A stretch of DNA of 64,000 nt from positions 11,490 to 75,489 of the forward strand of contig CAVYUD010000001.1 of assembly GCA_963771615.1 (NCBI GenBank), in the 5' to 3' direction. A program made the position numbers and the translations under genes. Numbering within the stretch: position 1 is the stretch's first letter; every line of letters starts with the position of its first letter. This stretch comes from an uncultured Gammaproteobacteria bacterium (GTDB lineage Bacteria > Pseudomonadota > Gammaproteobacteria > Steroidobacterales > Steroidobacteraceae). Positions 24,773 through 59,125 of this stretch are shown here, piece by piece. The notes below the pieces were generated by a model, which was given only the letters and a program-made list of their open reading frames with translations, was not told where the DNA came from and ran no database searches.

Positions 24773-24786
24773 AATGATCTCGAGCT

Positions 24787-40086: not shown

Positions 40087-40456
40087 CGGATCGGGGCTAG
40101 TAGGACTATCGTAGAACCAGCAACGCGACGGAGAAAACAGAGGTAGTGGGAAAATTAGCCACCATGCGATGCCGCCGATCGCGATGGTCACCAATACGAA
40201 GCGGCGATCGTCGGTCGAACCAATGCTCTGTGAGTGCGCGCTCATCGCCTGAAATTGAACGGTCGTCATCTGCCGCAGAACTTCGTTGTCTCCCATGGTG
40301 GTAGGCGACCTTGGCGTCCCATTCGATTGCGATGAGATGCCGGCCGATTCGCAGCGGGGCGGGGCGGCGAAAGTAAGCGTTTTGTACGTATTTTCGACCA
40401 ACGAAAACAAATGACTCCGTAGAGCCTCAAGGAGATAGCGTAAGTCATTGTTTTGA

Positions 40457-40475
40457 TGGCTCCCCGGGACGGATT
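40457..40475. repeat. 19-nt copy of the tRNA-Asn 3' end (TGGCTCCCCGGGACGGATT): att remnant
   Basis: Identical to 51032-51050. With a 1-nt gap the match extends to GTTTTGA upstream (40450-40475 versus 51024-51050). Confidence 0.7.
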
Positions 40476-40555
40476 ACTCGGCGACCTCGCCCTTCGGGTC
40501 GCCCTAAAGGGCGATCGCCGCCGCTGTCGCGGCGTCGTCGAACCGTCTTGTTCAT

Positions 40556-40571
40556 GTCGGCGGTTCGAATC
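40556..40571. repeat. 16-nt tRNA-Asn T-arm fragment (GTCGGCGGTTCGAATC) in inverted orientation
   Basis: Exact reverse complement of 51047-51062. It overlaps the previous fragment's tRNA coordinates by 4 nt (GATT/AATC). Confidence 0.5.
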
Positions 40572-40620: not shown

Positions 40621-41909
40621 TGTAGTACCTGACACATAGCTTACTGCATATACCGGAGACATCGTTTACACCTCAAGGCTTTGGGAGTGCCCCAATGCCG
40701 TGGAAGGAGTGTAAGCGGATGGATGAACGGCTTCGTTTTGTGGCCCGCCTACTGGATGGGGAGAACATGTCTCGAGTGTGCCGAGAGTTTGGCATCTCTC
40801 GTCCTACGGGCTACAAAATATTCAACCGCTACAAGGATCTGGGTTACCAAGGATTGCTCGACCGCAGTCGACGTCCCTACCGACACGCCAACAAGCTGCC
40901 TTTCCAGCTCGAGAGTGCGATTGTTAGGCTGCGCACCGAACATCCGAGTTGGGGCGCTGCGAAGATCCGTGAGAAGCTGCTGCGCGCTTTCCCCATGGTG
41001 CCGGCGCCGGCCAAAAGCACCGTGCACGCGGTGCTGGATCGCAACGGCCTAGTCGAGCGGCGCAAACGCCGACGCCACAAAGCCCAAGGCACTTCTCTTA
41101 CCGATCCGAGTTCACCAAACCAACTCTGGTGTGCAGACTTTAAAGGCGAGTTCATGCTCGGCAATCGCCTGTACTGCTATCCGCTGACAATCAGCGACTA
41201 CAGCTCTCGATACCTGCTGGCCTGCGAGAGCCTCGAGTCGACCAAGTCTGCTTTTGCCTTTAACGTCTTTGAGCGAGTTTTTAAGGACTTCGGACTGCCC
41301 AGCGCCATCCGCAGCGACAACGGTGTTCCCTTCGCCTCACCCAACGCTCTGTTCGGGTTGAGCAAGCTTGCCGTATGTGTGGCTACGCTTAGGCATCCAG
41401 ATCGAGCGCATTAAGCCCGGACATCCTCAGCAAAACGGACGCCATGAACGCATGCACTTGACGCTGAAGAAGGAAGCCACCAAGCCGGCCTCCTTCAACT
41501 TCCTGCAGCAGCAGAGTCGCTTCGATAAGTTCATCGAGGTTTACAACTCGCAACGACCCCACCAAGCCCTCGGCATGCGCTACCCAGCGGAACTGTATAC
41601 ACCCTCTGTTCGCCCTTACCGCGACCCTGAGCCGCCGCAGTATCCCTTCCACGATCGCACCGTGTGTGTCACGCAATGTGGTCGAATCTGCATCGGAAAG
41701 CGAAAAATCAACTTGAGCCAAGTCTTCTCCGGTCAACTCCTGGGTATCCGCGAGGTAGATGAGAAAATCTGGCTTGTCAGCTTCTTGGATTTTGACTTAG
41801 GTTACTTCGATGAGACGGAGGGACGGGTCGAACCAGGCCCCAATCCCTTCGCCGCAAAAGTGTTAACGATGCCACCGGTATAGTCTGTAAAGGATGTGCC
41901 CGGTACAGA
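40621..41909. mobile_element. IS481-family insertion sequence (~1.29 kb)
   Basis: Imperfect terminal inverted repeats: TGTAGTACCTGACACATAGCTTAC at 40621-40644 versus the reverse complement of 41887-41909. They flank a DDE transposase gene. Confidence 0.7.
40695..41883 (+). pseudogene. IS481-family DDE transposase, one frameshift
   Basis: ORF 40695..41414 has an HTH and the first part of the catalytic core (LWCADFKGEF...IRSDNGVPF). ORF 41368..41883 continues (IERIKPGHPQQNGRHERMH...). The shift lies near 41370-41385. Confidence 0.8.
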
Positions 41910-41919: not shown

Positions 41920-41964
41920 TGGCTCCCCGGGACGGATTCGAACCGCCGACCAACGGATTAACAG
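41920..41964. repeat. 45-nt perfect direct repeat of the tRNA-Asn 3' end (distal att site of the capsid-encoding element)
   Basis: TGGCTCCCCGGGACGGATTCGAACCGCCGACCAACGGATTAACAG is identical to 51032-51076. Confidence 0.85.
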
Positions 41965-42112
41965 GGCCTAACTTCGCGCATTCTTCTTACGGTTGCGCAC
42001 GTAACTGCAAGATAATAAAGCACATCAGAAGCGGCAATAACGCTGCTTTTTCAGCTATTCCGAAGTGCGTTGCAACACGGTTGCAACTCAAACGAACCGC
42101 GAGTGACGGGAG

Positions 42113-42898
42113 TCAGACTTGGGTGGGAGGCTGCGGATCACTAAAGTCCCTGCCAACCTTGCGTCTCTTTCGCCATTTGTTAACGAGCCTGCGCAAACAT
42201 CGGCGCCACCAGGCAGCTTTCCTCGTACTGGCGGGCGGCGACACTCCACGGGCTGGCGCCGTCGGTGTGTACCTCATTATCAAACCGGTCGGAAATACCA
42301 GACTGAGGACCTCACTGAGTTGCGTCGATATTGAGAGCAGTGCCTCAACGGTCCTAGGAATGTCAGCCTGCAGGTTTCCGGTGAGTTGCTTCAATTGCTG
42401 TACAAGATCAAATCCGACCATTTCCTCGACAACATGACTCGGCACGGATTCGCTCGGGCGCAGAACCTCTCGCGCGCGCTCTTGGAATCTCAAGTGAGTT
42501 TCATTGCGCATTTTGTTTGCCGCCAGAATGGAAAGGAAGGCCCTCTCGACCAATGACAATCTATTCAAGATGTCTGCATCGTGCGATTTGAGCAAGAATC
42601 CCAAACGGTCCATTGGGAGCGTCGATCGTTCATTCCACACAATCGTCATCGGAAGGTATTCGATATAGACAGGGTCTCGTTTCAATTTGCTACGCACCTC
42701 CAATGCTCTATCGACAAACGCCTGCTGATCATAATTGCGAATGACCGAATACATCTGTGCGAGGACCATGATCGCTTCGTTTCCGGCCGCAAGGTTCTCA
42801 CGATGCTTCTCGCTGCCTCGCCGTACAGCCTCCAATGCGAAGGCGGCGACTGCAAAAAAAGCCGCTCCAAACTCTGCATATGGGGTGGACTCGCTCAT
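42113..42898 (-). CDS. Cargo protein C, hypothetical (261 aa, predicted all-helical, basic tail)
   Basis: ORF with about 50% GC. The start lies 4 nt after the stop of the 70-aa ORF. No recognisable domain. Confidence 0.55.
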   Translation of the reverse strand: MSESTPYAEFGAAFFAVAAFALEAVRRGSEKHRENLAAGNEAIMVLAQMYSVIRNYDQQAFVDRALEVRSKLKRDPVYIEYLPMTIVWNERSTLPMDRLGFLLKSHDADILNRLSLVERAFLSILAANKMRNETHLRFQERAREVLRPSESVPSHVVEEMVGFDLVQQLKQLTGNLQADIPRTVEALLSISTQLSEVLSLVFPTGLIMRYTPTAPARGVSPPASTRKAAWWRRCLRRLVNKWRKRRKVGRDFSDPQPPTQV

Positions 42899-42902
42899 TT
42901 TC

Positions 42903-43115
42903 TCACTTCCCTACCCGCGCGGCTTGAGCCGGTAAAGGCCGGTTTCTTTCCAGACTTCGATTACATCGCGTTTCGCGAGTAGTTCTGCGGCTTTCTTCGT
43001 CGCTTCGAGGCTTCCGATCTAGCCATTTGTCCGGGCGATCCGACGCCCATTCGAGCATTGCGAGCATTTGCTCCTGCACCAGGCGTTCTTGTCGCGTAAG
43101 TTTTTTCGCTGTCAA
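42903..43115 (-). CDS. Cargo protein B, small hypothetical (70 aa, charged)
   Basis: ATG 43115 overlaps the stop of the upstream gene (ATGA). Translational coupling on both sides supports that it is a real gene. Confidence 0.45.
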   Translation of the reverse strand: MTAKKLTRQERLVQEQMLAMLEWASDRPDKWLDRKPRSDEESRRTTRETRCNRSLERNRPLPAQAARVGK

Positions 43116-43969
43116 GCGCTGCCTGCGGGTCGACGAAATTCTTCGTCGGCTTCATTTCCATCCGTGTGCGCCGCTAGGCTGGGACCCATTACCCCGAGTG
43201 GTCCACCCGTGTAAAAGCGGTACCGAGTAAACCTGTCGTTCCCGAATGCGTCACGATAGCGGATTTCGCCAAACACAAAAATTGCTTTTTTCCCGCTCCG
43301 AAGATCTCCTAAAACTTCAGTGCTCAACACAACCCCCGATACCCAGAAAATAGCTCTGTTAGAGGAAGGACCCATGCTCGCTTTTGAGATTTTCGGATCA
43401 TCAAATCGAGCCTTTGGCACAAGTTCCGTTATTAAGGGCCAATCAACGAGTTCTGTACTTATTGTCGCTTGGGCGTCGTAAGCTGGCGTCTGGCCAAAGT
43501 TTCTAAATTCGATAACTACACCTGTCCCGCCACCAGCAAATATTGTTCGGTTAGGCTCTATGAAGTTGCTATTTGCGTCCGCCGCGACAATCCTTGCGTT
43601 CTCAACAAAAACATCCGCCCGCAATTGCCTCACTGCTGTTCTTTCCGCATCTTCAACCAGGTTTCCGGTTGATCGCCAAAGCCGGTAGGTAAAGATTGCT
43701 AAGGCGGCTGTTATAACTGCGAGGGCCCCAGTCCCAACAGCAGTCCAAAATTCGATCCTGGATTTTCGCGTTTCTCTGTCATTTTCCAGACGAGTCTCCG
43801 TCAGAGGCTTGCTGATGATGATTGGCTGATCTGCAGTTCCGCGCCTGTCAGTCTCCGCCGTCGGATTAGGGTAGGCATCCGGGATTTCCGGAATGATGGT
43901 GGCGTGCGCAATTGCGAATGCGAGTAATCCCGTAAATGTCAGTCCGTGCCGCATCTTGTGGAGGCTCAT
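43112..43969 (-). CDS. Cargo protein A, hypothetical membrane protein (285 aa, two TM segments plus a ~170-aa beta-rich C-terminal domain)
   Basis: TM1 LTFTGLLAFAIAHATII and TM2 FWTAVGTGALAVITAALAIFTY. C-terminal domain ...VVIEFRNFGQTPAYD...IFVFGEIRYRDAFGNDRFTRYRFY. Confidence 0.55.
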   Translation of the reverse strand: MSLHKMRHGLTFTGLLAFAIAHATIIPEIPDAYPNPTAETDRRGTADQPIIISKPLTETRLENDRETRKSRIEFWTAVGTGALAVITAALAIFTYRLWRSTGNLVEDAERTAVRQLRADVFVENARIVAADANSNFIEPNRTIFAGGGTGVVIEFRNFGQTPAYDAQATISTELVDWPLITELVPKARFDDPKISKASMGPSSNRAIFWVSGVVLSTEVLGDLRSGKKAIFVFGEIRYRDAFGNDRFTRYRFYTGGPLGVMGPSLAAHTDGNEADEEFRRPAGSA

Positions 43970-44068
43970 GCGCCAATTGTAGCGGGCCGGTGTTGAAAAA
44001 GACCGTCCAATGTTGCGACCAGCCCTGCGGCCATTTCACAGATACCCGATCTGCGCTACATTCGCGGA

Positions 44069-44374
44069 GTGCTGATCGGCGCGAAAGTCCGAATCGATCC
44101 CAACACACCGTGCGGCGATTGCCCGCACGCGCCCAGCTGCGCCGCTTCTGGCATGGTCTGCGTGGCCTTTAATTGCTTCATAAGCAGCGGCTACTCAAGC
44201 CAGCGCTGGCGATCGCTGCCGCGAGAGCCAAGCGCAGCGATGACAGCGCACTCGCAGCAGCTGCATAGAAAGCAAACGGAGATGGAGCTTAAATGGCTGG
44301 CGAAGTTCGAGAAGCGCCAGGCGCGAAGGGGAAAGGCCACCAACTCGAGTCGCCCCGAATCGGTGGCCTGCTGA
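44069..44374 (+). CDS. Possible Cys-rich small protein (101 aa), convergent with the capsid gene
   Basis: ORF only (GTG start). No homology recognised. It could be non-coding. Confidence 0.3.
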   Translation: MLIGAKVRIDPNTPCGDCPHAPSCAASGMVCVAFNCFISSGYSSQRWRSLPREPSAAMTAHSQQLHRKQTEMELKWLAKFEKRQARRGKATNSSRPESVAC

Positions 44375-45522
44375 TCAAGCCAGCGCGACGACCTGCACAG
44401 CGTGCGCGTCGCCTACGGATAATTGCCCTCGAAGCTCGGCCAGGTAGGTGAATAGGTTCTCGGTGAACTGCGAGCCCGTATAGCCGATTAGGAATTGAAT
44501 TTCCTGCCGATCCAGTATCTCGACCAGCTGCGTATCCAGCACAATCGCATGGCCCGCCGCCAGACCAGGCGTAGAGACAATCTTTGCGTTGTTCCAGAGG
44601 GCGCTCGGCGCGGTTGCATCTACGTACTCACCAGTGGTCGCCCGCTCGGAAATGATATTGAAATAGTCGCTGGAATTCACTATCACCAAATCCGCCGCGT
44701 ATCCGTAAGGCGGAAGGCCGTTGTAGACTGCATCGCCGATTTTGTCCCGATTCTTTGTCGCGGCCGACGTGAATGCGGTGCCCGCGTTCACTAAGCCAGT
44801 GATATGCCCATCGCTGGCGCTGCCTGAGCCGCTGATGATCAGATTCTCGTACTTGCGCAGCACGAAGAACGAGAGCCAGGACTGCAGGAAAGCTGGCAAT
44901 GACGAAACATCATCCAGCAGCTGGCGGCTTGCATTCAGGAAGGTCGCAACCGTCGCCATCGGCAAGCTTGCGTGTGAACGGACATAGTGCTTTCGCCCTT
45001 CGCGCCGCCCTGGAATTCCTGGACGGCCGATCCATCGCTGCTGCTGGTAACTTCGGGGACAATCGCCGTGCCTGCTCCTGTCGGCCGATGCGGCAACGCC
45101 TGAAGCACTTGCAGTTTTCTGCCGGGCGAAGAAATTGGGACTGGCGAAATAAATTCTGTCGGCGTCGGGAAGCCGTCTTCCGGCGAAGATCCGCTGGTGC
45201 CGGTCGAGACAAGGACGGATTTGATCAGCATCGACAGCGAGCCCTTCTGGGTCAGCTGAATCTGGCGCGTCTCGCCCTTGCGCAGCTGCTCGATCTTCGG
45301 ATCAGCGGCAAGCAATTCGCCGAAGTTTAGGCGGCCGCCGGCGCCACGATTGCCGCCGCTGCGGACGCTCTTCGCGACCTTCTGCTCAAGATCCAGAATG
45401 CGCGCATCGGTGGCCTTGGTGTAATCGCCGAGTTCGGCCAACTGCTTATCGACCTTCAGGCCGGAAGCCTTCGCTGCATCGCCGATTTCGCCGATAGATT
45501 TCGTGATCGTTGCAAGATCCAT
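44375..45522 (-). pseudogene. HK97-fold phage major capsid protein, one frameshift as sequenced
   Basis: ORF 44935..45522 has an N-terminal coiled delta-like region (...DARILDLEQKVA...). ORF 44375..44965 carries ...TFLNASRQLLDD...IISGSG...GLV... and a C-terminal A-domain. The shift lies near 44960-44970. Confidence 0.85.
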
Positions 45523-45525
45523 AAA

Positions 45526-46188
45526 TTAATTCCTTGAATTGAAGTTTTGAGTAGCGCGCCTCGCTGCGGCAAGCACCGCCGTGATTTCTTGCGCGTCGAA
45601 TTTGGGTTCGTGATCGTCTTCCGCCAAAAGCGGGCCGCACGCCTTTGCAATTTTCTCGGCCAGGCGGCGCGGCATCGGCGGAAGCTCGCCTTCGCGTAGC
45701 AAGCGCTCAAGATCTGCGCCTGCGAGATTCTTCACCGCCAAGATTCGCGATTCTCGATTCGATGGCGCTGCGACGGCGCTGATTTCGACCAGATCGACGC
45801 GCTTGAAGCGCTTGCCGCCGCCAGAAATGGCTTCCACATGCCCATCGTGCGGCATGAATCCGACGCTTAGCGAAAGCTGATTGGCGCGCGCAAGGGCCAA
45901 CGCGCGGTCCGCAGATGGCGTGCCGGGTATGATTCGACCTTCGACGTGCAGGCCTTCGTCGGTTTCTTCAGCGCTTGTGATGCCGCCCAGCTGGTCGCGC
46001 TCCGAGTGATTGTTCAAAAGCGGGATGCGCTGCTTACCGGAATGCAGCGCGGCGATTGAATCGGCGAAAGCACCAGGCAAAATCTCGTCGCCATGACGAT
46101 CTCGCGCCCAGCTCGATGCGAACCCTGCGAATGTGCCTGAATCGGCTGCGGGCGCGAATTTTAAAATCAATGGCTGCGAAAAGATCAC
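45526..46188 (-). CDS. HK97-family prohead protease (S78/U35)
   Basis: ...FAGFASSWARDRHGDEILPGAF... (catalytic His region) and ...LSLSVGF... (Ser region). It sits immediately upstream of the capsid gene. Confidence 0.85.
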   Translation of the reverse strand: MIFSQPLILKFAPAADSGTFAGFASSWARDRHGDEILPGAFADSIAALHSGKQRIPLLNNHSERDQLGGITSAEETDEGLHVEGRIIPGTPSADRALALARANQLSLSVGFMPHDGHVEAISGGGKRFKRVDLVEISAVAAPSNRESRILAVKNLAGADLERLLREGELPPMPRRLAEKIAKACGPLLAEDDHEPKFDAQEITAVLAAARRATQNFNSRN

Positions 46189-46333
46189 GCGCGCACCTCA
46201 AAGGCCAGTAGAAAATCTGGATTGCCTTTCGAGAAGCGCGGTCGCACATTCTGAAAAATGCAAAGGCGCGCGGTCGCACAGCCTCTACGCGGCGGAATGT
46301 AGCGCATGGAAGCATGGCCGCACAAGACCGGCT

Positions 46334-46666
46334 TCACGATTTCGGGCCAACAATCGAGACATTCCTTCGGCCGGTATGCACACGCGATGCCTTCGCCAGG
46401 TCAGAAATTCCCTGGCCCATGCGCTTGAACCTTTGCAGCGCTATGTGCAGCGCGATCTTCGCGTCTGCGGCGGACATCGGGCCTTCGATCTGCCAGGAAA
46501 TGATCAGTCCGTTCTGAATCGTCGCAACGCCGACGCATGCTTGATCCTTTCCCACATGCGGGCAATCGACGATCGCGTGGTCATCGGGTAGCGCGAATCC
46601 TGCCAGCTGATGTGCTTCGGCTTCGCATGCCGCGCAAAGCATAGGCGGCCGGAGGTGCGTGGCCAT
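46334..46666 (-). CDS. Hypothetical protein (110 aa)
   Basis: ORF co-oriented in the element. Its start abuts the stop of the upstream ORF. No domain recognised. Confidence 0.4.
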   Translation of the reverse strand: MATHLRPPMLCAACEAEAHQLAGFALPDDHAIVDCPHVGKDQACVGVATIQNGLIISWQIEGPMSAADAKIALHIALQRFKRMGQGISDLAKASRVHTGRRNVSIVGPKS

Positions 46667-46908
46667 CAGTTCGTCGCCCTTGCGATGCGCGCCTGATACT
46701 GCGCCAGGCGCACCGCCAACATGCCGTTGATCTGCCGCATGGCGATTTTCAGCTGCTGCTCGTCCATCAGCCCGCTTGATGCCAGCAAAAGCTGCCCACG
46801 CTCGCCTACATTCAGGAATGTTTCGTACGTCATGCTATTCAGCAAAAGGATCAGCGCCAGCTGCGAAGTCTCTCGCGCTACGGGTTCGTCGAAAGTCGGT
46901 TCGGTCAT
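46666..46908 (-). CDS. Hypothetical protein (~80 aa, from the internal Met MTEPTF...)
   Basis: The internal Met is preceded by AGAGGAA. The longer 5' extension looks non-coding. Confidence 0.4.
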   Translation of the reverse strand: MTEPTFDEPVARETSQLALILLLNSMTYETFLNVGERGQLLLASSGLMDEQQLKIAMRQINGMLAVRLAQYQARIARATN

Positions 46909-47113
46909 CGGAATTCCTCTATTTGCCGGGAAAAAGTGAAACTGCTCGGGGGGGATGCTGCGAATTAAGCGACGGGGTACCATGCAATTTCGCGCAAAGG
47001 GGCTCGCGTTTGGACGATGGCCGCGCAAAAATCTTTCTAGGACGCGATCGCTTGCGCGCACCGCTTTTTACTGTGGACCGCCCTACGGGAGGCGGACCCG
47101 CCCCTATGGGCGA

Positions 47114-47386
47114 TCATGGCGATTTGCCTTCGAGCGCCGCATAGCTCGCGATTTGAAAGTGGAGTAGGCCGCTCCATCCGCAGCCGCACTCAGCGATGCG
47201 GCTGTTAGGCAAATCGACATACCACCATCGAAAGCCGCGCACGCCATTGGGCGTTCGCTGCGTGTGCGCGATATGGTTGTGAACAATGGCCCGCCCTGCG
47301 ATCCGTTCGGGCATTCTTCGTCCTGCGATCCGTTCGGGCATTCTTCGTTCTTCTGGCATTCCTCGCTGCGCTTTTGTTGTCTTCAT
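47114..47386 (-). CDS. Hypothetical protein (90 aa) containing a duplicated RRMPERIAG segment
   Basis: ORF. Contains the perfect 27-bp tandem duplication at 47295-47348. Confidence 0.4.
   Translation of the reverse strand: MKTTKAQRGMPEERRMPERIAGRRMPERIAGRAIVHNHIAHTQRTPNGVRGFRWWYVDLPNSRIAECGCGWSGLLHFQIASYAALEGKSP
47295..47348. repeat. Perfect tandem duplication, 2 x 27 bp (CCTGCGATCCGTTCGGGCATTCTTCGT)
   Basis: Read directly. It is in-frame within ORF 47114..47386. Confidence 0.9.
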
Positions 47387-47428
47387 TTCGAATCTCTCCT
47401 GCAGTTACGGGTTCAATCAATCGGTTCG

Positions 47429-47623
47429 TCAAAGCATTTCGCGCGCGATGATCTGCACCACATCGTGATCATTCATGCGCAAGCAGCTGGCGATATCGCG
47501 CGGCCGAAGTCCATCGCGATGCATGCGCAGTACTTCGCGGCGAATATCATCGGGATTGGTTGGCCGATGCATCTGCGCGCGCGCTTCGTAGTCGCGCGCT
47601 GATAGAATTCGATCAGCCATCAA
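47429..47623 (-). CDS. Small HTH-like protein (64 aa)
   Basis: ...IRREVLRMHRDGLRPRDIASCLRMNDHDVVQII resembles a sigma-70 region 4 / LuxR-type HTH. Confidence 0.45.
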   Translation of the reverse strand: MMADRILSARDYEARAQMHRPTNPDDIRREVLRMHRDGLRPRDIASCLRMNDHDVVQIIAREML

Positions 47624-47750
47624 GCGTTGCTCCTAGCGATTTGGTGGTTAGGCCGCGCGGCCGAAGAGTCGGTATGCTGCGGCCAACGGGAACCGCCGCT
47701 TAGACTCAAGGATCGGACTGCGCTGGCCGATTTCAAATTGCGGCGAATTT

Positions 47751-48494
47751 TCAATGCAGCGCTCCCGATTCGGACAGCGAAAGCTTGAGGCGCTCGACGT
47801 CCTCGATCGGCAGATTGTATTCACGGGCGAACCAAGTCAGCGCCTGGCTTGGAACGGCCGCCATCACTTCAAGCGCGAGCTTCTCGCGCTGATCCTTCGG
47901 CAGATCTGAAAATTCAGCTTTGCCTTTCATGACCCTCCGCAGCGTTGGCGGCCTGGCTGCTGGCGCTTCGGGCTTCGAGCTTTTTTTTTCCAAATCTTCC
48001 GGCGCGCGCGGTGCGGCAGCTTGCTGCTGCACATTACATGTACGATTATTTGGAGGGTTACCTGAAGAGTTAAGAGAAGAGTTAGTCGGCAATCCTTGCC
48101 GGGCGTCGTGTCGTAGATTGCCGGGCGTCGGGTCGTCATTTGCCGGGCGTTCCCACTTTGGGTCATCTACCCAGGGTTTTGACGTACGCAATCCGGCCAG
48201 CCGATCGGGAATCGTGGCCATGTACTCGTGAACGAACCAAGCTTTGCCCTTCTGCGCCTTCTGATAGATCCTGAGCCACTCTGCGTCTGCCGCTAGATTG
48301 AGGTGAGTGCGAACCGATCGCACGCTCAGTCCGGCTCGCTTGGCGATAAGCTCCTGGGCTGGGAAAGCGTTTTCGCCGACCTGATTCATATGCAGGGAGA
48401 GCACCAAAAGCACCAGCCGAGTACTCGGATCTGACGGACCATTTTCGCTTGCGATCAATTCGCGCCATTGCCAGCGCTCACACTCAAGCGCCAT
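47751..48494 (-). CDS. Winged-helix replication-initiator-like protein
   Basis: N-terminal ...RLVLLVLSLHMNQVGENAFPAQELIAKRAGLSVRSVRTHLN... wHTH, as in phage/plasmid replication organiser proteins. Low-complexity linker. Confidence 0.55.
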   Translation of the reverse strand: MALECERWQWRELIASENGPSDPSTRLVLLVLSLHMNQVGENAFPAQELIAKRAGLSVRSVRTHLNLAADAEWLRIYQKAQKGKAWFVHEYMATIPDRLAGLRTSKPWVDDPKWERPANDDPTPGNLRHDARQGLPTNSSLNSSGNPPNNRTCNVQQQAAAPRAPEDLEKKSSKPEAPAARPPTLRRVMKGKAEFSDLPKDQREKLALEVMAAVPSQALTWFAREYNLPIEDVERLKLSLSESGALH

Positions 48495-48636
48495 TGCGCG
48501 CAGCCACTACTTCAATCATCGCTTGTCCGTCCCGTATCCGTTCCAAGCCTAAAAGAAACGCGCCGAATATCCGGCGACCGATCAGCTTCAAAAAGACGCA
48601 GCGCTTGATTACGGGTCAAGCGCTGCGCGATTCCGA

Positions 48637-48885
48637 TCAGGGCTGTGCTGCCGCGGCTTCTTTGCGCTGGCGATTCGGCGCTGTGCCGGTGCCAAGAAAT
48701 TCCAACGCCTCGGCTGCAGATAGGTCGTATGCAAAGCCCGCCACCGCAAAATTCGATGCGAGATCAACGATCATAAATTTCCCGTGATTGCTGGCTGACC
48801 CGAGATGCCGCCGGCTTTTTCGAAGTCGGTAGCCATGCGCTTTGGCTGCTCGCTGCGCGCGCGCGATCTGCTTACCGGCGCTCAT
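48637..48885 (-). CDS. Small hypothetical protein (82 aa) ending ...APNRQRKEAAAAQP
   Basis: ORF. 4-nt overlap with the upstream ORF. Its C-terminal tail is encoded by the 35-nt repeat. Confidence 0.45.
   Translation of the reverse strand: MSAGKQIARAQRAAKAHGYRLRKSRRHLGSASNHGKFMIVDLASNFAVAGFAYDLSAAEALEFLGTGTAPNRQRKEAAAAQP
48647..48681. repeat. 35-nt direct repeat, copy 1 (GCTGCCGCGGCTTCTTTGCGCTGGCGATTCGGCGC)
   Basis: 34 of 35 nt identical to 48892-48926, with 245-bp spacing. Confidence 0.85.
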
Positions 48886-49169
48886 GCCGATGCTGCCGCC
48901 GCTTCTTTGCGCTGGCGATTCGGCGCGATAGAAAAGCTGGCGACGTTGGCGGTGTGGAGTTCAAGCCAGCGCTGGTATCGGCTGCCCAGCACAATCAATT
49001 CGCGGCCGACGCGGGCAAGCGCGCCCGCTTGGATCAGTGAATCCCGATTGGCGCGAACGACGTACGCGGCGCGCGAGCAGGAATTGGGGTAAATGTGGGC
49101 GGGCCAGTCGGCGATCGTCCAGGAATCTTGCTGCGCGAATTTGCGCGGCTTCGGGGTCTTGGCAGGCAT
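48882..49169 (-). CDS. Possible excisionase/DNA-binding protein (95 aa) ending ...APNRQRKEAAAASA
   Basis: ...LIQAGALARVGRELIVLGSRYQRWLE resembles Xis/AlpA-type wHTH C-termini. The position near the integrase fits. Confidence 0.45.
   Translation of the reverse strand: MPAKTPKPRKFAQQDSWTIADWPAHIYPNSCSRAAYVVRANRDSLIQAGALARVGRELIVLGSRYQRWLELHTANVASFSIAPNRQRKEAAAASA
48892..48926. repeat. 35-nt direct repeat, copy 2
   Basis: See copy 1. Confidence 0.85.
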
Positions 49170-49268
49170 ATCAGCGGCTCCATCAAGTTTGGTACCGCTT
49201 ACCTATATAAAGTACTTTTGCCCGAGTGGGGCGCGCGAACGGCGTTCACGCGCCAAATAATCGAAAAA

Positions 49269-49724
49269 CTACTTGTTTTTGGCTGTCAAATCGCCCTCAG
49301 CTTCGGCGGTGATTTTGTAGATCTGGGAGTTGGTGAGCGCCAGCGATGATACCCAGTCAAGGCGGAATAGCTCGCGCATTGCATCGGATCGCTCGAAGCC
49401 CTTTTTGCGAATCTTCAGATATTCCTTTTTCAATTTCGCATGATCATTTTTCTTTCGACGCGCCTTACCTGAAGCTTTGCCAGCAGCACTCGCGCGCTTC
49501 GCGGTGGCGCTGCCTTTGCCTGATGCGATGGCGGCGTCAAAGGCCGCTTGATATTCGTCCATCGCGGCTTTCATGCTTTGCAAATCGCCGATCCTGATCG
49601 ACTCGGACACCCGCGCAGCATGGATTTCGTGCGCACGCTTCGCTTCGTCTGAAGCAGCATCGATCACCGATACAAGATCAGCGATTGCCTTCGCAATCGG
49701 GGCTGGCTTCGCCTTGCCGCTCAT
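49269..49724 (-). CDS. Hypothetical protein (151 aa, Ala/Lys-rich)
   Basis: ORF with a 4-nt overlap with the integrase stop. No domain recognised. Confidence 0.45.
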   Translation of the reverse strand: MSGKAKPAPIAKAIADLVSVIDAASDEAKRAHEIHAARVSESIRIGDLQSMKAAMDEYQAAFDAAIASGKGSATAKRASAAGKASGKARRKKNDHAKLKKEYLKIRKKGFERSDAMRELFRLDWVSSLALTNSQIYKITAEAEGDLTAKNK

Positions 49725-50830
49725 TTGCCGCCCAACGCTTTATCAAGCGCGGCATGGCCAGTCACCGCCTTCGTGTCGACCAGGTGCGCATACCGCGCCG
49801 TTACAGCTGGCGATCGATGGCCGAGGACGCTGCCGATTTCCAGCAGGCTTGCGCCATTGGCGGCCAGGAGCGAAGCGCAGCTGTGGCGAAGATCGTGCCA
49901 GCGGAATCCCTGCAGGCCCGCAGCTGCGCGGATGCGGCGCCAGAATCGTTCGACCCACCATTGCGTCGCGGGCTCGCCGCGCTCATTGATGAACACGGCC
50001 GATGTAGAAACGACATTCGCGCGCTTCAGATCCCGAAGGGCAGCGGCAGCGGAGGAGGGCAGGTGCGCGCCGCGCGCGTCGCCATTCTTCGAAATGAGGA
50101 TCCGAAGCGATTGCGCCTCGAAATCGACATCAGCCCACTTCAGGCGCAGCAATTCCCCCTTTCGCAAGCCGGTGGCGATCGAGACCAGCACCGCCGCATA
50201 CATCGTCGGGCCCTGATCCTTCGCGGCGGCCAGGACGCGCGGAAGCTCGAGTTCGGTCAGATGCCGGGTGCGCGGCCGCCGTTCTGTCAGCAGCAGGCGC
50301 GGCGGCCAGACCTGATTCTCTGCCAAGTATCCGGAGGCGCGGCCCCAATTCCAGGCCGATCGAAGCGCCGATAGGTACCGATTGATCGTCGCGGGCGCGA
50401 TGCCGGTCTGCGCAAGCTTGTCTCGCGCATCGCGAAGGGTGACCACGCCGACTTCGCGGATTCGCTTCTCGCCGATCTTATTGACCCACCAAGCCAGCCG
50501 GGCGCACGAATCCTTGTAGGAAAGCAGCCGCTGCGCTTCAGGGTCCGCCAGGTAGGCTGCGGCCAGCTGCGAGACCGTCAGGCTCGTAAGATCGGGCCGC
50601 GCATCGCCTGCCTTGCGCCGCTCAGCGATCAGCTTCGTTTTTTCGGCATCGGCCCAGGCGGCCGCATCATCTTTGCTGCGGAAGGTCTGCGATCGCGCGT
50701 GGAAGGGGCGCACGCGGACCATGGCCACCCAGGCTATCGATCCGTCCTGATTGACGCGGCGCTTGACGTTGCCCTTCCAGCTTCGCTTTGAAGCTGATCG
50801 GGATCGGGCCGTATGATTGGCGGTATCCAT
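49721..50830 (-). CDS. Tyrosine recombinase / phage integrase
   Basis: SAM-like N-domain. Catalytic residues sit in ...ATGLRKGELLRLKW..., ...WHDLRHSCASLL... and ...LGHRSPAVTARYAHL. Adjacent to tRNA-Asn. Confidence 0.9.
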   Translation of the reverse strand: MDTANHTARSRSASKRSWKGNVKRRVNQDGSIAWVAMVRVRPFHARSQTFRSKDDAAAWADAEKTKLIAERRKAGDARPDLTSLTVSQLAAAYLADPEAQRLLSYKDSCARLAWWVNKIGEKRIREVGVVTLRDARDKLAQTGIAPATINRYLSALRSAWNWGRASGYLAENQVWPPRLLLTERRPRTRHLTELELPRVLAAAKDQGPTMYAAVLVSIATGLRKGELLRLKWADVDFEAQSLRILISKNGDARGAHLPSSAAAALRDLKRANVVSTSAVFINERGEPATQWWVERFWRRIRAAAGLQGFRWHDLRHSCASLLAANGASLLEIGSVLGHRSPAVTARYAHLVDTKAVTGHAALDKALGGK

Positions 50831-51031
50831 TGCAGCACCTCGATTGCTGTAGCGGCTAGGCCCTGGTCGATCCTTGCCGGGATCGATCGGGGCTGATTCT
50901 CAAGGCGCGCACTAGGCGCGTAGACGCGAATATGCGCCGCTCTGGGAGGCAGTTGCAACATGGCTTGCAACACGGCAATGCTGGCGAACCGCGGAAAGCG
51001 GCTTAAATACCTGTATTCACTGCGTTTTGAT

Positions 51032-51106
51032 TGGCTCCCCGGGACGGATTCGAACCGCCGACCAACGGATTAACAGTCCGTCGCTCTACCACTGAGCTAC
51101 CGGGGA
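51032..51106 (-). tRNA. tRNA-Asn (GTT), CCA encoded
   Basis: Manual fold: acceptor TCCCCGG/CCGGGGA, anticodon stem ACGGA/TCCGT, loop CTGTTAA, T-arm GGCGG-TTCGAAT-CCGTC. Confidence 0.9.
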
Positions 51107-51199: not shown

Positions 51200-52404
51200 T
51201 TACGCGCGTTTAGCGACCGCCGGAGCAACGGCGAGCCGGATGCGGCTCAACGCGTCCTTGAGCGTGTCCATGCTGCAGGCGAAAGAGATGCGCATATGAT
51301 TCGGGGCACCAAATCCTGATCCTGGGACCACGGCGACCAAGGCGTTCGCCAGCAAGTATTCGGCAAACTCCGTGTCATCTTTCAGTCCGAGTGAGCGCAT
51401 CGCACCTTCGACATTCGCGAAGGCGTAAAACGTTCCGGCACCTGGGCAAGCAGGAAATGCCTGGAATCGCATTCAAGTCCGGCTACCACAAAATCATGCC
51501 GTGCCTTGAACGCCTTGTTCATCTCGCCAACGCAGGTCTGGTCGCCGTTTAGCGCGACCGTGGCGGCGCGTTGTGAAATGCTCGATGCATTCGAGGTGGA
51601 TTGGCCCTGGACGGTGGACATGGCCGCAACAATTTCCTTGGGGCCGCCGCAATAACCAATTCTCCAGCCCGTCATCGCGTAGGCCTTCGAAACGCCGTTG
51701 ATGGTGATGGTGCGGTCATAGAGATTGGGATTCGCCTGAGCAAAGCTCGTGAACGGCTCCGGCGCCCAATAAATATGCTCGTACATCTCGTCCGAGGCGA
51801 TGACAATCTGCGGGTGCTTGGCAAGGACTTGGCCCAAAGCCTGCAACTCTGATTTTGTGTAGGCGGCTCCGGTCGGGTTGCTCGGACTGTTAATGATGAA
51901 AAGCTTGGTGCGTTGAGTGATCGCGGCCGCGAGTTGTGCGGCCGTGATCTTGTAGGATTGTGAGGGCCCGGCATAAACGAAGACCGGTACACCGTCGGCC
52001 AACAGTGCCATGTCGGGATACGATACCCAGTAGGGCGCCGGAATGACGCATTCATCGCCCGGATCGAGCAGTGCGGCGCAGGCATTAAAACAAGTCTGTT
52101 TGGCCCCGGAGGAAACCAAGATTTGGCTTCGATCATAGGTTAGCGAGTTGTCTCGCTTGAACTTGGCAATAATTGCATCCTTCAATTCAGCCGTGCCGTC
52201 GACGGCGGTATAGCGTGTGATCCCCTTGCGAATGGCTTCGATGCCCGCATCTGAGATATGCGCGGGTGTGTCGAAATCCGGCTCCCCTGCCGCCAATCCG
52301 ATGATGTCCTTACCCTCCGCTTTGAGCTTGGCGGCTCGGGCGGTCATCGCGAGGGTCGGAGAGGGCTTAACCTTTTGAACGCGCTGGGAAAGGGGCAAGG
52401 GCAA
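51200..52404 (-). CDS. Class I pyridoxal-phosphate aminotransferase (aspartate aminotransferase-like), two closely spaced frameshifts as sequenced
   Basis: ...GEPDFDTP..., ...NSPSNPTG..., ...GVSKAYAMTGWRIGY... in ORF 51382..52404. The C-terminus (GAGTFYAF...MRISFA...) is in ORF 51200..51472. Two single-A insertions lie near 51440-51480. Confidence 0.85.
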
Positions 52405-52576
52405 GGGGACATACCTATGTTAAATCGAGAGGGTTTGAGTGTACGAAAAAAGACCAACCCATGCCAGGAAACCTTAGCCTCGAGCGTGTGACATATGGCA
52501 TTCCGAAAATGCGTACCGGTGCACCGCGCCATGCGCGAACGCCTCGAATCTTTGCAACGTGAGAGAATATGCAGAC

Positions 52577-54579: not shown

Positions 54580-54585
54580 GTACTT

Positions 54586-56477: not shown

Positions 56478-56549
56478 TTTTCCAGCCAGCTCGGCGACTT
56501 TTGCTTTATTGGTGCCGGCGAATCCGGTATCTTTCGCGCCCGACGGCTT

Positions 56550-56624
56550 GCGCGCTTAGCTCAGCGGTAGAGCATCACCTTGACATGGTGGGGGTCAGTG
56601 GTTCGATCCCACTAGCGCGCACCA
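56550..56624 (+). tRNA. tRNA-Val (GAC), CCA encoded
   Basis: Manual fold: acceptor GCGCGCT/AGCGCGC, anticodon loop TTGACAT, T-arm AGTGG-TTCGATC-CCACT. Confidence 0.9.
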
Positions 56625-56670
56625 TCCCTTTCAGACGAGGGATGCCGGCCCCCTTTGTTAAGATGCGTTC

Positions 56671-58628: not shown

Positions 58629-59125
58629 GGCGCAATGAAGAGATCTCCGCACCATCGGTGCGAGTGATCGCAGCCGATGGAAGCCAAGCAGGGGTAATGA
58701 CACGCGCGGAAGCGCTGCAGATGGCCCTCTCGCAAACTCTGGACCTCGTCGAGGTCTCGCCGATGGCGGAGCCGCCGGTGGTACGAGTCATGGATTTCGG
58801 CAAATTCTTGTTCGAACAAAACAAGAAGGCGCACGCGGCGAAGCGTAAGCAGAAGCAGATTCAAGTCAAGGAAGTAAAGTTTCGTCCCGGGACGGAAGAG
58901 GCGGACTACCAGGTCAAACTGCGTAGCATCATCCGCTTCCTGACCGAGGGTGATAAGGCCAAGGTGACTTTGCGTTACCGCGGCCGTGAGCTCGTGCATC
59001 AAGACATCGGTCGCCGGCTACTCACGCGGATTTCTGAAGACCTCGCACCGTATTCGGTGGTGGAGCAGAACCCGCTGATGGAAGGCAAGCAGATGGTCAT
59101 GGTGTTCGGGCCCAAAAAGAAGTGA
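58607..59125 (+). CDS. infC: Translation initiation factor IF-3 (non-canonical ATC start proposed)
   Basis: ...[18 protein letters not shown]...[22 protein letters not shown]...[20 protein letters not shown]...[10 protein letters not shown]. There is no ATG/GTG/TTG in frame after the GGAGGA at 58595-58600. ATC 58607 follows it. Confidence 0.85.

Follow-up and report, generated by a model that had tools for sequence, protein, structure and literature searches.

We analyzed a 64-kb stretch of DNA (the window) from a soil gammaproteobacterium of the Steroidobacteraceae, in which a 9.1-kb element is inserted in a tRNA-Asn gene. As listed in Table 1, all genes of the element lie on the minus strand, in the order integrase, small ORFs, Rep-like initiator, three small proteins, protease, capsid protein and cargo. 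An earlier note on this DNA had described this single gene direction, a 45-nt direct repeat of the tRNA-Asn 3′ end bracketing the element and a tyrosine integrase beside the intact tRNA, and our analysis bore out all three. The two copies of the repeat are identical and spaced 9112 bp apart, and the 31-mer core of the repeat was matched twice, with 0 matches expected in shuffles. The integrase translation shows HDLRH and RYAH motifs.

Table 1. Features of the element and its flanks, by position in the window
Feature	Position	Strand	Evidence or remark
IS481-family transposase, split over two frames	40695..41883	+	HTH_32, rve, rve_3 domains; phrog_8463
Distal att copy, exact 45-nt duplicate of tRNA-Asn 3′ end	41920..41964	.	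0 chance matches expected
Conserved element end beside distal att copy; possible integrase arm sites	41965..42089	.	function inferred
Cargo ORF, 261 aa, function unknown	42113..42898	-	ORF call
Cargo ORF, 285 aa, predicted membrane helices, low GC	43112..43969	-	ORF call
16-bp hairpin then U run, 6 nt past capsid stop codon	44334..44369	-	RNA fold -39.8 kcal/mol, z-score -3.4
HK97 gp5-type major capsid protein, N-terminal delta (scaffolding) region	44375..45522	-	PF05065; phrog_10
Prohead serine protease, S78, HK97 gp4 type	45526..46188	-	PF04586 Peptidase_S78 1.9e-15; phrog_80 1.5e-31
Conserved non-coding region, promoter-like	46189..46333	-	alignment A3, 12 family members
110-aa family-specific protein, directly upstream of protease	46334..46666	-	alignment, AF2 model
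~81-aa helical protein, family-specific	46669..46911	-	family HMM; AF2 model
Perfect 27-nt x 2 tandem repeat, candidate cis site for packaging/regulation	47295..47348	.	TRF score 108
64-aa HTH protein, kept across satellite family	47429..47623	-	sub-threshold PF17469 GP68 (8.5e-5), HTH_23/PAX
Replication initiator-like protein, N-terminal winged helix	47751..48494	-	PF13730 HTH_36 2.1e-10
22-nt x 2.5 tandem repeat within rep gene	48096..48150	.	TRF score 82
Terminator-like hairpin, 13-bp stem then T run, after early genes	48596..48628	-	consensus scan only
82-aa protein, function unknown	48637..48885	-	translation; repeat D4
95-aa protein g95, possible excisionase or regulator	48882..49169	-	assignment unverified
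151-aa Lys/Ala-rich protein, function unknown	49269..49724	-	start overlaps integrase stop
Tyrosine integrase, 369 aa	49721..50830	-	PF00589 4.3e-31; phrog_1 5e-58
Integrase-proximal att core, tRNA-Asn 3′ 45 nt	51032-51076	-	direct repeat D1
tRNA-Asn(GTT)	51032..51106	-	ARAGORN; Rfam RF00005, 74.5 bits

The distal att copy is also 100% identical to the tRNA-Asn 3′ end at three related loci, L027, L041 and L043. In L041 and L043 (UvrB 92-94% identical) the site is empty: the tRNA-Asn is followed by ~55 nt and then by sequence matching window positions 40439-40570. The insertion in the window therefore consists of the 9.1-kb element plus the IS481-family copy, which is absent from the empty sites and is external to the element, separating the host flank from the distal att copy. 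At the equivalent tRNA-Asn site, L027 carries a small element related to this one, with 91% identity between the integrases and a related Rep. The earlier note would have been refuted by a full-length prophage at this site in close relatives; none was found in these three genomes, and no prophage lies within the 64-kb window. The end of the element beside the distal att copy is itself conserved: positions 41920-42089 are 82% identical over 170 bp to positions 5948-6117 of another related locus, L003, despite differing cargo.

Several small genes follow the integrase. The 151-aa protein had no family match in Pfam, PHROGs or NCBIfam, and its C-terminal half is 68% identical to the product of the neighboring gene in L027. 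The 95-aa and 82-aa proteins have a C-terminal peptide in common, APNRQRKEAAAA, by way of a 48-nt DNA repeat (48634-48681 and 48879-48926, 88% identity). Homologues of the 95-aa protein occur in L027 (72%) and L028 (48%), its sole profile match was phrog_28498 (E 0.016), and it does not resemble the HTH_17 Xis of L030. A DNA-binding role was substantiated only for the Rep and the 64-aa HTH protein; the possible Xis of the earlier note was not supported. The hairpin after these early genes comes from a consensus scan in which the total count of such sites was not above chance.

The winged-helix initiator also matches phrog_1032, phrog_270 and phrog_391 (replication initiation or O-like), in agreement with the role first assigned to it, and is 75% identical to its L027 counterpart. 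The rep gene of L027 has a different repeat (21-nt x 2.4) at the place equivalent to that of the 22-nt repeats. The lambda ori sits inside gene O, and by analogy the 22-nt repeats are a candidate iteron origin, a function that is inferred. The 27-nt repeat falls inside a 90-aa ORF (47114-47386) with no homologue in any related locus, and because this ORF is not conserved, the stretch is probably non-coding. A cos-like segment lies at the relative position of this repeat in L031 and L009. We infer for the repeat a possible role in cis, in packaging or regulation.

A protease-capsid pair and a variable cargo slot

The prohead protease and HK97-fold major capsid protein reported earlier were both recovered. 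The protease gave single-piece tblastn matches at 41-58% identity in members of the family described below. The capsid ORF is split into two parts (44935-45522 and 44375-44965) by a one-base frame change near 44965-44970; the C-terminal part matches PF05065 Phage_capsid (8.6e-13) and phrog_10 (3e-14). When rejoined, the protein is 382 aa long and aligns collinearly and end to end with 43 homologues (best identity, 74%), and the family profile matches HK97 gp5 (3qpr) at 3.9e-29. When compared with L027, each of four genes next door, encoding ThrRS, an FHA-domain protein, UvrB and an aminotransferase, is broken up into 2-4 frames. Because these neighbors, including the essential ThrRS, are also frameshifted in what is an error-prone assembly, the frameshift in the capsid gene cannot be taken as a sign of decay and is probably a sequencing error. 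A sub-threshold match of the capsid to Linocin_M18 (E 0.0042) was also seen. The hairpin past the capsid stop codon is a probable terminator; the stretch that holds it (44316-44374) is 88% identical to L003 3633-3697, with zero mismatches in the alignment over the ~38 nt covering the hairpin.

Beyond the hairpin lies the 2.4-kb cargo region, whose low GC content, already remarked on, is 0.48-0.53 compared with ~0.58-0.62 in the rest of the element. Neither cargo ORF had a match in Pfam, PHROGs, NCBIfam or PADLOC or a homologue in related loci. The same slot holds a PADLOC candidate defense gene in L028 (PDC-S59, 1.6e-73) and a SocA_Panacea protein in L003.

Phage HK97, like the element, has an S78 protease followed by a ~385-aa capsid protein with an N-terminal delta region. 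In HK97 and in ~40-kb HK97-like phages among our loci, however, HNH, TerS, TerL and portal genes precede this pair and connector and tail genes follow it, and the element lacks all of these. The earlier note had recognized no portal, terminase, head-completion, tail or lysis gene, and our searches agreed: no portal, terminase, connector, tail or lysis gene was found among ORFs of ≥60 aa with Pfam, PHROGs and NCBIfam, and a three-frame minus-strand PHROG scan of two unannotated stretches gave no portal, terminase or tail match. No TerS- or Rpp-like packaging-specificity protein was recognized in the element.

Related elements and their links to tailed phages

The architecture of the element recurs in at least 10 independent loci (L001/2, L003, L004, L005, L008, L009, L010/30, L028, L029 and L031), with the gene order recombinase, Rep, small genes, protease, capsid, short cargo and host genes. 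Integration targets are tRNA-Asn, Ser, Lys and Pro, and two recombinase classes are represented, L001 having a serine recombinase. Unit lengths are 9112, 8809, 8471 and 8302 bp. The assembly of one relative closes into a free 8.8-kb circle: the two ends of L010 overlap by 98 bp, and its sequence is found circularly permuted, at 100% identity, in L030 from a different sample. Whether such circular contigs originated from particles or from cells is not distinguished. The recurrence, the 8.3-9.1-kb size range and the free circle support the earlier proposal of a complete, satellite-like integrative unit, as opposed to a randomly deleted prophage.

In the ~40-kb phages, TerL and portal lie directly upstream of the protease, where every family member instead carries three conserved small genes and a promoter-like region; these are kept in the satellite family and absent from phage loci. 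The 64-aa HTH protein was detected by a family HMM in L001, L003, L004, L009, L027 and L031; the ~40-kb phage loci gave no match. The ~81-aa protein, recovered by its HMM in L001/2, L003, L005/6 and L040, corresponds to a listed 131-aa ORF (46666-47061) that probably starts at the internal Met51. Its single-sequence AF2 model (pLDDT 70.7) has four helices and no PDB fold match at E<2, and its profile gave no PDB sequence match. The 110-aa protein, present in L001, L004, L009, L028-L031 and L040, had only 16 matches among 1.84 billion representative proteins. Its invariant residues are P8, C11, C14, C35, W58, G62 and P63, and the conserved Cys/His pattern points to zinc binding; Foldseek gave no PDB or BFVD match to its AF2 model (pLDDT 74.6) at E<0.02. 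The earlier note had allowed for cryptic TerS, portal or connector folds among the small ORFs, and neither of these two modeled proteins matched any such fold.

The promoter-like region contains TTGTGC (46320-46325), an 18-nt spacer, TACATT (46296-46301) and two direct TGTGCGACCGCGC boxes (46268-46280 and 46236-46248), in that order. No conserved RNA fold was found in it (-3.4 kcal/mol), and its profile matched once per satellite locus and not at all in phage loci. Its function as a promoter is inferred.

Direct links to tailed phages were found for L010/L030. They encode an 849-aa tape-measure protein that shares 79-83% identity with its counterpart in the ~40-kb phages L012, L017/18 and L013/34, so the family is not strictly without tail genes. 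A further 130 nt match, at 88.5% identity, the part of L017 between the HNH domain and terS (cos-type), and a cos-like profile also matches L028 (E 1.7e-11), L031 and L009. The first ~100 nt of the L010/L030 capsid gene are 87-93% identical to those of the ~40-kb phages, and the capsids have an N-terminal peptide in common; the capsid bodies are only ~25% identical. L012 and L010 came from one sample, as did L034/L035 and L030. The phage loci were retrieved through a capsid delta-region motif, so this co-occurrence is partly search bias; the tape-measure and cos similarities do not rest on this motif. For the window element, our searches turned up neither a helper phage nor a cos-like segment nor DNA in common with phages, and the N-terminal peptide by which some relatives are linked to phages is missing from its capsid. 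The reliance on a helper proposed in the earlier note thus gains support from the tape-measure, cos-position and capsid N-terminal links of L010/L030, and none has been shown for the window copy.

Interpretation and comparison with known systems

We consider it probable that the window element is an integrated phage satellite that encodes its own capsid shell and no other virion part, a helper supplying the rest. An infecting helper phage, or induction of a resident one, would trigger excision at the 45-nt core, and the excised circle would then be replicated by Rep, starting at the iterons. The protease and capsid genes would be turned on from the conserved promoter that precedes them. HK97 gp4 and gp5 alone assemble proheads, and the satellite capsid protein would likewise build a small shell, sized for ~9 kb of DNA and probably begun on a helper portal. 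Assembly on a foreign portal needs explaining, because capsid protein and portal usually co-evolve in tailed phages; contact may be made through the delta region, which retains motifs in common with the candidate helper phages. Helper HNH/TerS/TerL would package the satellite DNA at a borrowed cos-type site, helper connectors and tails would complete the particle and helper lysis would release it. The cargo slot may hold host-benefit or anti-phage genes that vary between elements.

It is possible, though unlikely, that the capsid and protease serve mainly to sabotage phage assembly, for example through poisoned procapsids, and protect the host without particle transfer. The delta-region motifs common with phages and the candidate defense gene in L028 would suit such an island, and cos-type SaPIs offer a precedent: in the portion of the source available, the Ccm of SaPIbov5, a satellite-encoded homologue of the helper capsid, blocks the helper and redirects its capsid assembly from prolate to isometric, and the satellite has no terminase, helper terminase acting at a copied cos (PMC8569155). 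No protease accompanies Ccm, whereas the window element has a complete pair of protease and delta-domain capsid; phylum and gene set also differ, and the shell-forming body of the family capsid is only ~25% identical to candidate helper capsids. The narrow 8.3-9.1-kb units, the free circle and the phage-shared cos-position segment point, however, to packaging of the element itself, and since interference and transfer do not exclude each other in known satellites, this is a partial reading more than a rival.

We regard as distinctly improbable a helper-independent element whose HK97 shell, closed and portal-less like a procapsid or encapsulin, forms a compartment or a tailless mini-virus. Protease and delta-domain capsid suffice for shell assembly, as established for HK97, the window element gave no portal or terminase match, and the sub-threshold Linocin_M18 match and the free circular L010 are compatible with it. 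Gene logic and size are also alike in the "mini" HK97 twilight-zone entities of Aguilar et al. 2025 (bioRxiv 10.1101/2025.06.18.659913), 8.9 +/- 0.6 kb with terminal repeats, which encode an integrase (sometimes an excisionase), Rep and an HK97-fold capsid but no terminase, portal, connector or tail, apart from a lone tape-measure ORF in one entity, and which those authors, in line with this reading, take for possible ssDNA or procapsid-type viruses. Our relative L010 fits their description. Their clade, however, is from human gut, with encapsulin-profile capsids, a separate scaffold and no protease mentioned, whereas the present family comes from soil Pseudomonadota and has an HK97 gp5-type capsid, an S78 protease and direct sequence links to tailed phages. 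Moreover, the above-threshold capsid matches are to Phage_capsid and HK97 gp5 and not to encapsulin families, a maturation protease with a cleavable delta region is typical of DNA-packaging capsids, no cargo-loading partner is evident, and the helper-type tape-measure gene and HNH-terS (cos) segment of L010 would be senseless without a tailed helper.

Decay of an HK97-like prophage at tRNA-Asn, with terminase, portal, connectors, tail and lysis genes deleted, would fit the phage order of the protease-capsid pair, the interrupted capsid ORF, the IS element adjoining an att copy and the tape-measure gene of L010/L030, but is scarcely tenable given two exact att copies, the same reduced gene set and order, with a similar size, at four tRNA targets with two recombinase classes, small genes and a promoter-like region replacing TerL/portal in every family member, related genomes without a full prophage at the site and a frameshift explained by assembly error.

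A helper-dependent satellite with its own shell thus remains our preferred reading, and it can be set beside other satellites. P4, like the present family a small integrative replicon of ~10 kb, carries the cos of its helper P2, is packaged by the helper terminase and has a capsid smaller than that of the helper, traits that our reading would give the present family too. It redirects the helper capsid protein through the external scaffold Sid and encodes neither capsid protein nor protease. No P4-like gene names occurred among the PHROG and Pfam matches of the element, which are general profiles and not P4-specific markers. PICMIs are also minimalist, with very reduced gene content, but encode no capsid-remodeling genes according to the part of the source available (PMC10803314), whereas the present family spends ~1.8 kb on its capsid module.

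Akin in design are the capsid-forming PICIs (cf-PICIs, e.g., EcCIEDL933; Alqurainy et al. 2023; de Sousa et al. 2023, PMC10085698), which have 11 core components and a median size of 14 kb. Like the window element, they are integrated and encode an integrase and a replication module together with a prohead serine protease and an HK97-fold capsid. They build a satellite-sized capsid of their own and rely on a helper, as the window element would. Their core includes portal, head-tail adaptor, head-tail connector, TerS, TerL and HNH, none of which (0/6) is present in the 9.1-kb window element. The earlier note had called such an architecture possibly undescribed, which is only partly true in view of the ~8.9-kb integrase, Rep and capsid genomes of the 2025 preprint and the SaPIbov5 capsid homologue. 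The window element is one of a small, conserved family that has yet to be characterized and, as a probable satellite, would, unlike cf-PICIs, borrow the portal and packaging motor as well as the tails of its helper.

Ends and integration site of the element

We compared the ends of the element with the surrounding chromosome and with related genomes. The 45-nt 3′ end of a tRNA-Asn(GTT) gene is duplicated exactly at the far end of the unit, and the 31-nt core of this repeat has two matches in the window compared with none in 100 shuffles. No further att copies indicative of tandem islands were found across the window, and Rfam gave the tRNA as its single match. The genes adjoining the tRNA belong to the host (an aminotransferase, UvrB, an FHA-domain gene, ThrRS and IF3), and the closest named relatives of the host flank genes are from Steroidobacteraceae or Pseudomonadota metagenome-assembled genomes. 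Two relatives with UvrB 92-94% identical to that of the window, L041 and L043, carry the same tRNA-Asn followed ~55 nt on by sequence matching window 40439-40570. Measured against these empty sites, the extra DNA in the window consists of an IS481-family insertion (40.6-41.9 kb) and the 9.1-kb element. The IS481-family transposase gene, missing at L041 and L043 and itself split over two frames, sits exactly where the host flank gives way to the distal att copy. A third relative, L027, has an integrase 91% identical and a Rep 75% identical to those of the window copy at the same site, after which its contig ends. The earlier note had described a complete integrative unit with exact repeats, a claim that a full-length prophage at the same site in close relatives would have undermined. 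The ends proved exact, and none of the related genomes examined (L027, L041, L043) has a full prophage at this tRNA-Asn; they carry an empty site or a related small element instead.

No helper prophage was found in the 64-kb window, whose left flank contains only host genes: an exopolysaccharide-type cluster at 16000-27000 (sugar transferase, Wzz/GNVR chain-length protein, glycosyltransferases and methyltransferase), which is unrelated to the element, and genes for a LysR regulator, PhzF, a ClC channel and a GH3 glycosidase. Window 41920-42089, comprising the att copy and 125 bp inside the element, is 82% identical to positions 5948-6117 of the related locus L003, which has wholly different cargo of nearly equal length (2.41 against 2.44 kb). 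This combination suggests, from sequence comparison, that the arm sites may be conserved and the cargo slot limited in size.

Gene content and assembly quality

All sizeable ORFs between the repeats that have HMM or homologue support lie on the minus strand. The replication protein is a winged-helix initiator and not a primase-type replicase. Its gene contains an internal repeat of 22 nt x 2.5, and rep of L027 has a repeat there too, though a different one; by analogy with lambda gene O, these repeats would match the pattern expected of iterons within an initiator gene. The protease had no sequence match in the PDB, and the capsid family profile matched HK97 gp5 (3.9e-29). An encapsulin system was considered and rejected: the capsid scored 16.8 bits against Linocin_M18 (cut-off 24.3) vs 48.7 bits against Phage_capsid, an S78 protease is present, and the neighbouring genes are integrase and Rep.

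Coordinates of features in the window and in related loci
Feature	Locus	Positions	Strand	Support or remark
IS481-family transposase	window	40695-41883
45-nt repeat, distal copy	window	41920-41964
Capsid protein, two pieces	window	44935-45522 + 44375-44965	minus	C-terminal part vs Phage_capsid (PF05065) 9e-13; phrog_10
S78 prohead protease	window	45526-46188	minus	PF04586 2e-15; phrog_80 1.5e-31
90-110-aa protein (g110)	window	46334-46666		directly upstream of protease; invariant P8, C11, C14, C35, W58, G62, P63
~81-aa helical protein	window	46669-46911		longer listed ORF probably starts at internal Met
27-nt x 2 repeat	window	47295-47348		perfect; in non-conserved stretch
64-aa HTH protein	window	47429-47623		family-specific
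Winged-helix replication-initiator-like protein (Rep)	window	47751-48494	minus	HTH_36 2e-10; PHROG replication-initiation families
22-nt x 2.5 repeat inside Rep gene	window	48096-48150
48-nt direct repeat	window	48634-48681, 48879-48926
Tyrosine integrase	window	49721-50830	minus	PF00589, 4e-31
45-nt repeat, tRNA copy	window	51032-51076
tRNA-Asn(GTT)	window	51032-51106	minus	ARAGORN, Rfam
N-terminal capsid peptide	L010	7324-7460
N-terminal capsid peptide	L005	5575-5710
N-terminal capsid peptide	L012	4262-4400
N-terminal capsid peptide	L017	9788-9930
849-aa tape measure	L030	6140-8689 (= L010 8602-8907 + 9-2342)		phrog_8462, 7.5e-30
51-nt tRNA-Pro(GGG) 3′-end repeat x3	L004	2731-2781, 4380-4430, 12682-12732
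439-aa AAA-type cargo protein	L028	10150-11469		PADLOC PDC-S59, 1.6e-73

Joining the two capsid pieces between STMSVHTQA and LPMATVATF yields a protein of 382 aa that can be aligned with its homologues over its full length, apart from a 5-aa gap near residues 300-310 that an alternative frame does not explain. The window is part of a 150-kb metagenomic contig, and its assembly, probably from long reads, is error-prone: by comparison with L027, at least four frames are needed to cover the essential ThrRS gene, four for the FHA-domain gene, three for UvrB and two for the aminotransferase (window 51200-58700). Because these flanking genes are split over two to four frames, the capsid frameshift near 44960-44970, which the earlier note wanted checked by re-sequencing, is most simply explained by a sequencing error and carries no information on decay. 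Small ORFs could likewise be fragments produced by errors, and their annotation therefore rests on relatives found in other assemblies. The checkable element genes (integrase, Rep, g110, protease and capsid, within 44375-50830) contain one frame change in ~4.6 kb, vs ~10 in ~7.7 kb of flanking chromosomal genes; the lower density in the element might reflect higher coverage (e.g., from extra copies) or a mixture of strains in the flanking DNA.

The final 2.4 kb has a lower GC content (0.48-0.53) and contains two cargo ORFs, which are unique to the window copy, with no counterpart in related loci and no match in Pfam, PHROGs, NCBIfam or PADLOC; with neither ORF matched in PADLOC, we dropped the idea that they are defence genes. 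A 16-bp hairpin followed by a U run stands after the capsid stop codon, and the conserved post-capsid segment, once a candidate cos, proved to be this terminator. A 20-mer of the segment had a single, chance match of 24 nt in the IMG/VR contig L044 and no other similarity. Upstream of Rep, adjacent genes for 95-aa and 82-aa proteins share the C-terminal peptide APNRQRKEAAAA, which arises from the 48-nt direct repeat. The possible Xis suspected among the small DNA-binding-like proteins was not borne out; the 95-aa protein has no similarity to the HTH_17 excisionase of the circular relative L030.

We searched the remaining coding space for other virion genes. No ORF of the element matched a portal, large or small terminase, HNH, head-tail adaptor or connector protein, and what is left consists of small ORFan genes only; NCBIfam had no match for any small or cargo ORF. 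Scanning all minus-strand frames of 46189-47750 and 41965-44374 against PHROGs, with stops masked, likewise revealed no portal, terminase or HNH and nothing beyond the known small HTH protein. Since the same library detects TerL (7e-148) and portal (7e-97) in L012, a ~40-kb HK97-like phage, the negative result is not a failure of sensitivity for typical proteins; TerL, TerS and HNH were readily detected in L012 and in the similar phage L017. The earlier note's failure to recognise portal, terminase, head-completion, tail or lysis genes thus stands after searches of ORFs and frames alike.

Three small proteins go with the protease-capsid pair throughout the family, and the phage loci contain none of them: the HTH protein, the helical protein and g110. 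For g110, a word-based search found 2 homologues and an exhaustive search of 1.84 billion representative proteins found 16. Its AF2 model (pLDDT 74.6) had no fold match in PDB or BFVD. The helical protein had no fold match for its single-sequence model (pLDDT 70.7) and no PDB sequence match for its profile. As neither model found a match, none of the three can be called a TerS, connector or portal fragment, and the suspicion that such folds might be hidden among the small ORFs gained no support. Between g110 and the protease, ~145 nt are conserved at the DNA level even among members whose proteins are only 35-55% identical. This region comprises a promoter-like TTG(C/T)GC separated from TACATT by 17-18 nt, and after these come two direct TGTGCGACCGCGC boxes at a distance of 32 nt. 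Its profile matches once per satellite and never in the phages. We infer that it may be a regulated late promoter. A structured RNA upstream of the protease was also considered and dropped, there being no conserved secondary structure (-3.4 kcal/mol).

Relatives and candidate helper phages

The rejoined capsid has 43 homologues among 5.8 billion proteins. Its profile found only L004 in a one-genome-per-species collection, from which the window's own genome is absent, and 13 loci in metagenomes. Where context sufficed to judge (L001/2, L003, L004, L005, L008, L009, L010/30, L028, L029 and L031; at least 10 loci), the layout is the same throughout: a recombinase and a few small genes come first, then a replication protein with further small genes, then the S78 protease and capsid, and last one to four unrelated genes before the host genes. 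None of these family loci has a portal or terminase within 10 kb. Family members target tRNA-Asn, Ser(TGA), Lys(CTT) and Pro(GGG). Their modules vary: L001/2 has a serine recombinase, and L001 a weak MerR_1 match; the replication proteins are of HTH_36 types, with RecT in L028, DUF1376 in L009 and a DnaD-like protein in L004. The cargo slot contains a PADLOC candidate defence protein in L028 (at tRNA-Ser), a SocA_Panacea protein in L003 and a tape measure in L010. Units with both ends visible measure 9112 bp (window), 8809 bp (L010), 8471 bp (L028) and 8302 bp (L004). In L004, the 8.3-kb member lies beside a 1.6-kb remnant, and the tRNA-Pro repeat is present three times, which indicates that elements have integrated in tandem at a single tRNA. 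Where capsid identity is only ~25%, the loci are ordinary ~40-kb phages with the order TerL-portal-protease-capsid ... tape measure.

One relative, with 41% capsid identity, assembles as a free form. L010 (IMG/VR, 8907 bp) has a 98-bp terminal overlap, leaving a unit of 8809 bp, and L030, from a different metagenome, is a circular permutation of it with 100% identity; overlap and permutation together imply that this relative exists as an 8809-bp circle or as a concatemer. It encodes an integrase, an HTH_17 excisionase, Rep, a Cys-rich small protein, protease, capsid and one 849-aa tape measure, which is 79-83% identical over its whole length to those of the ~40-kb phages L012, L017/18 and L013/34. 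No other tail gene was recognised among the called ORFs, and why this satellite carries a tape measure as its lone recognised tail protein remains unexplained.

Further similarities connect L010/L030 with these phages. Over its initial ~100 nt the capsid gene is 87-93% identical to the phage genes, whereas the rest of the capsid is only ~25% identical. These nucleotides encode the N-terminal peptide RRIITRGVIDMATS..LE..Y.Y.G, which is near-identical in phage capsids and several satellite capsids. A non-coding segment of 130 nt is 88.5% identical to a stretch of L017 that separates the HNH domain (PF01844) from the start of terS (PF05119, Terminase_4), immediately upstream of terL; in HK97-type phages, cos lies at this HNH-terS position. 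A profile of this segment matches L028 just after the capsid gene (E 1.7e-11) and, more weakly, L031 and L009. Phage and satellite also share samples (L012 with L010; phage L034 and L035 with L030). We note that the phage loci were retrieved through the delta-region motif ARILDLEQK, which biases the set towards including them; the similarities in tape measure and cos position do not depend on the motif.

The window copy has the full family core, intact ends, an integrase whose translation shows the expected catalytic motifs, and a capsid with ARILDLEQK in its delta region. Its capsid lacks the N-terminal peptide, the cos-like profile derived from L010 and phage sequences has no match in the window, and none of 50,697 phage records shared DNA with the 7.8 kb of the element compared by blastn. 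The perfect 27-nt repeat and the non-coding DNA after the capsid gene could serve as cis sites, a suggestion that is speculative. As judged by sequence similarity, the apparent helper link is carried by L010/L030 and in part by L028, L031 and L009; it is not shown for the window copy.

Comparison with known systems and proposed mode of life

We place the element among phage satellites that encode capsid components. It shows the generic satellite trait of a discrete integrative element without most virion genes. Among classical PICI features, we found an integrase in the window, no match for alpA, merR or stl, a winged-helix initiator rather than a primase, and no TerS. Like the cf-PICIs, it combines an integrase and replication module with its own HK97-fold capsid and prohead protease; unlike them (PMC10085698), it lacks portal, TerS/TerL/HNH, head-tail adaptor and connector, and it is ~5 kb shorter than their median. 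Like cos-type SaPIs (PMC8569155), it has a capsid homologue and probably a helper cos; unlike them, it has a full protease and delta-domain capsid pair. The closest published architecture is that of the ~8.9-kb mini HK97 genomes of Aguilar 2025 (bioRxiv 10.1101/2025.06.18.659913), which encode integrase, Rep, capsid and scaffold without portal, terminase or tail, one of them with a lone tape-measure ORF. These come from the human gut, have encapsulin-like capsids with no protease mentioned, and were not tied to helpers by the authors. L010, with its 98-bp terminal repeat, fits the mini-entity traits of that study: a genome <11.6 kb with a terminal repeat that encodes an HK97-fold capsid as well as lysogeny genes but neither portal nor terminase nor tail. 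The window copy is its integrated counterpart; the element does not share the encapsulin-enriched capsid trait of the main clade. The view of the element as satellite-like, with protease and capsid as its sole particle genes, is supported, and the family-level evidence is coherent. The suggestion that it might be undescribed survives in part: no description of a protease-plus-capsid-only satellite family was found in the literature, but the preprint contains genomes that are similar.

We consider it probable that the element is a phage satellite: shell and protease would be its own, and an HK97-like helper would provide portal, HNH/TerS/TerL, connectors, tail and lysis. The whole case is computational and the family is rare; helper-dependent packaging is inferred, the circular assembly of L010/L030 being the sole related evidence. 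Rival readings are a self-contained element whose shell has no portal and a pure interference island. A third, a defective prophage or prophage remnant, is unlikely, given the exact ends, the reduced architecture kept in at least 10 loci and the lack of a full prophage at the site in relatives.

In HK97, gp4 and gp5 are enough to form proheads. The capsid and protease of a shell-supplying satellite would assemble their own small HK97-type shell, which we infer to be much smaller than the helper's, fitting the narrow genome size, no T number being derivable. Helper-like delta-region motifs may allow contact with the helper portal or protease, again an inference. It is possible, and we propose it only tentatively, that this amounts to a distinct strategy, midway from the theft of whole capsids by PICIs to the theft of tails alone by cf-PICIs: protease-capsid satellites of ~8.3-9.1 kb would build their own shell on the helper portal via the delta-domain motifs, the helper HNH/TerS/TerL would fill it at a borrowed cos, and the three small proteins and the promoter would control or redirect the process.

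If true, this would be an unstudied division of labour, with shell and protease from the satellite and portal, packaging motor, connectors and tail from the helper. The family would offer a handle on how a capsid recognises a portal with which it has not co-evolved, the short delta motifs that it shares with the candidate helpers being direct candidates. With genomes of 8.3-9.1 kb, it bears on the minimum size of a DNA-filled HK97-type capsid, and its shells would be natural sub-T=7, possibly T=3 or T=4, capsids of tailed-phage type, which are predicted but rarely seen. It also offers a satellite explanation for the portal-less, tail-less ~9-kb HK97 virome genomes reported without a mechanism. 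Current satellite finders would miss the family because the expected core genes are lacking. The variable cargo slot, which holds a candidate defence gene, a toxin-antitoxin-related gene or a tape measure depending on the member, is also worth searching for genes of phage-host conflict, and the family extends capsid-encoding satellites to uncultured soil Gammaproteobacteria (Steroidobacteraceae-like).
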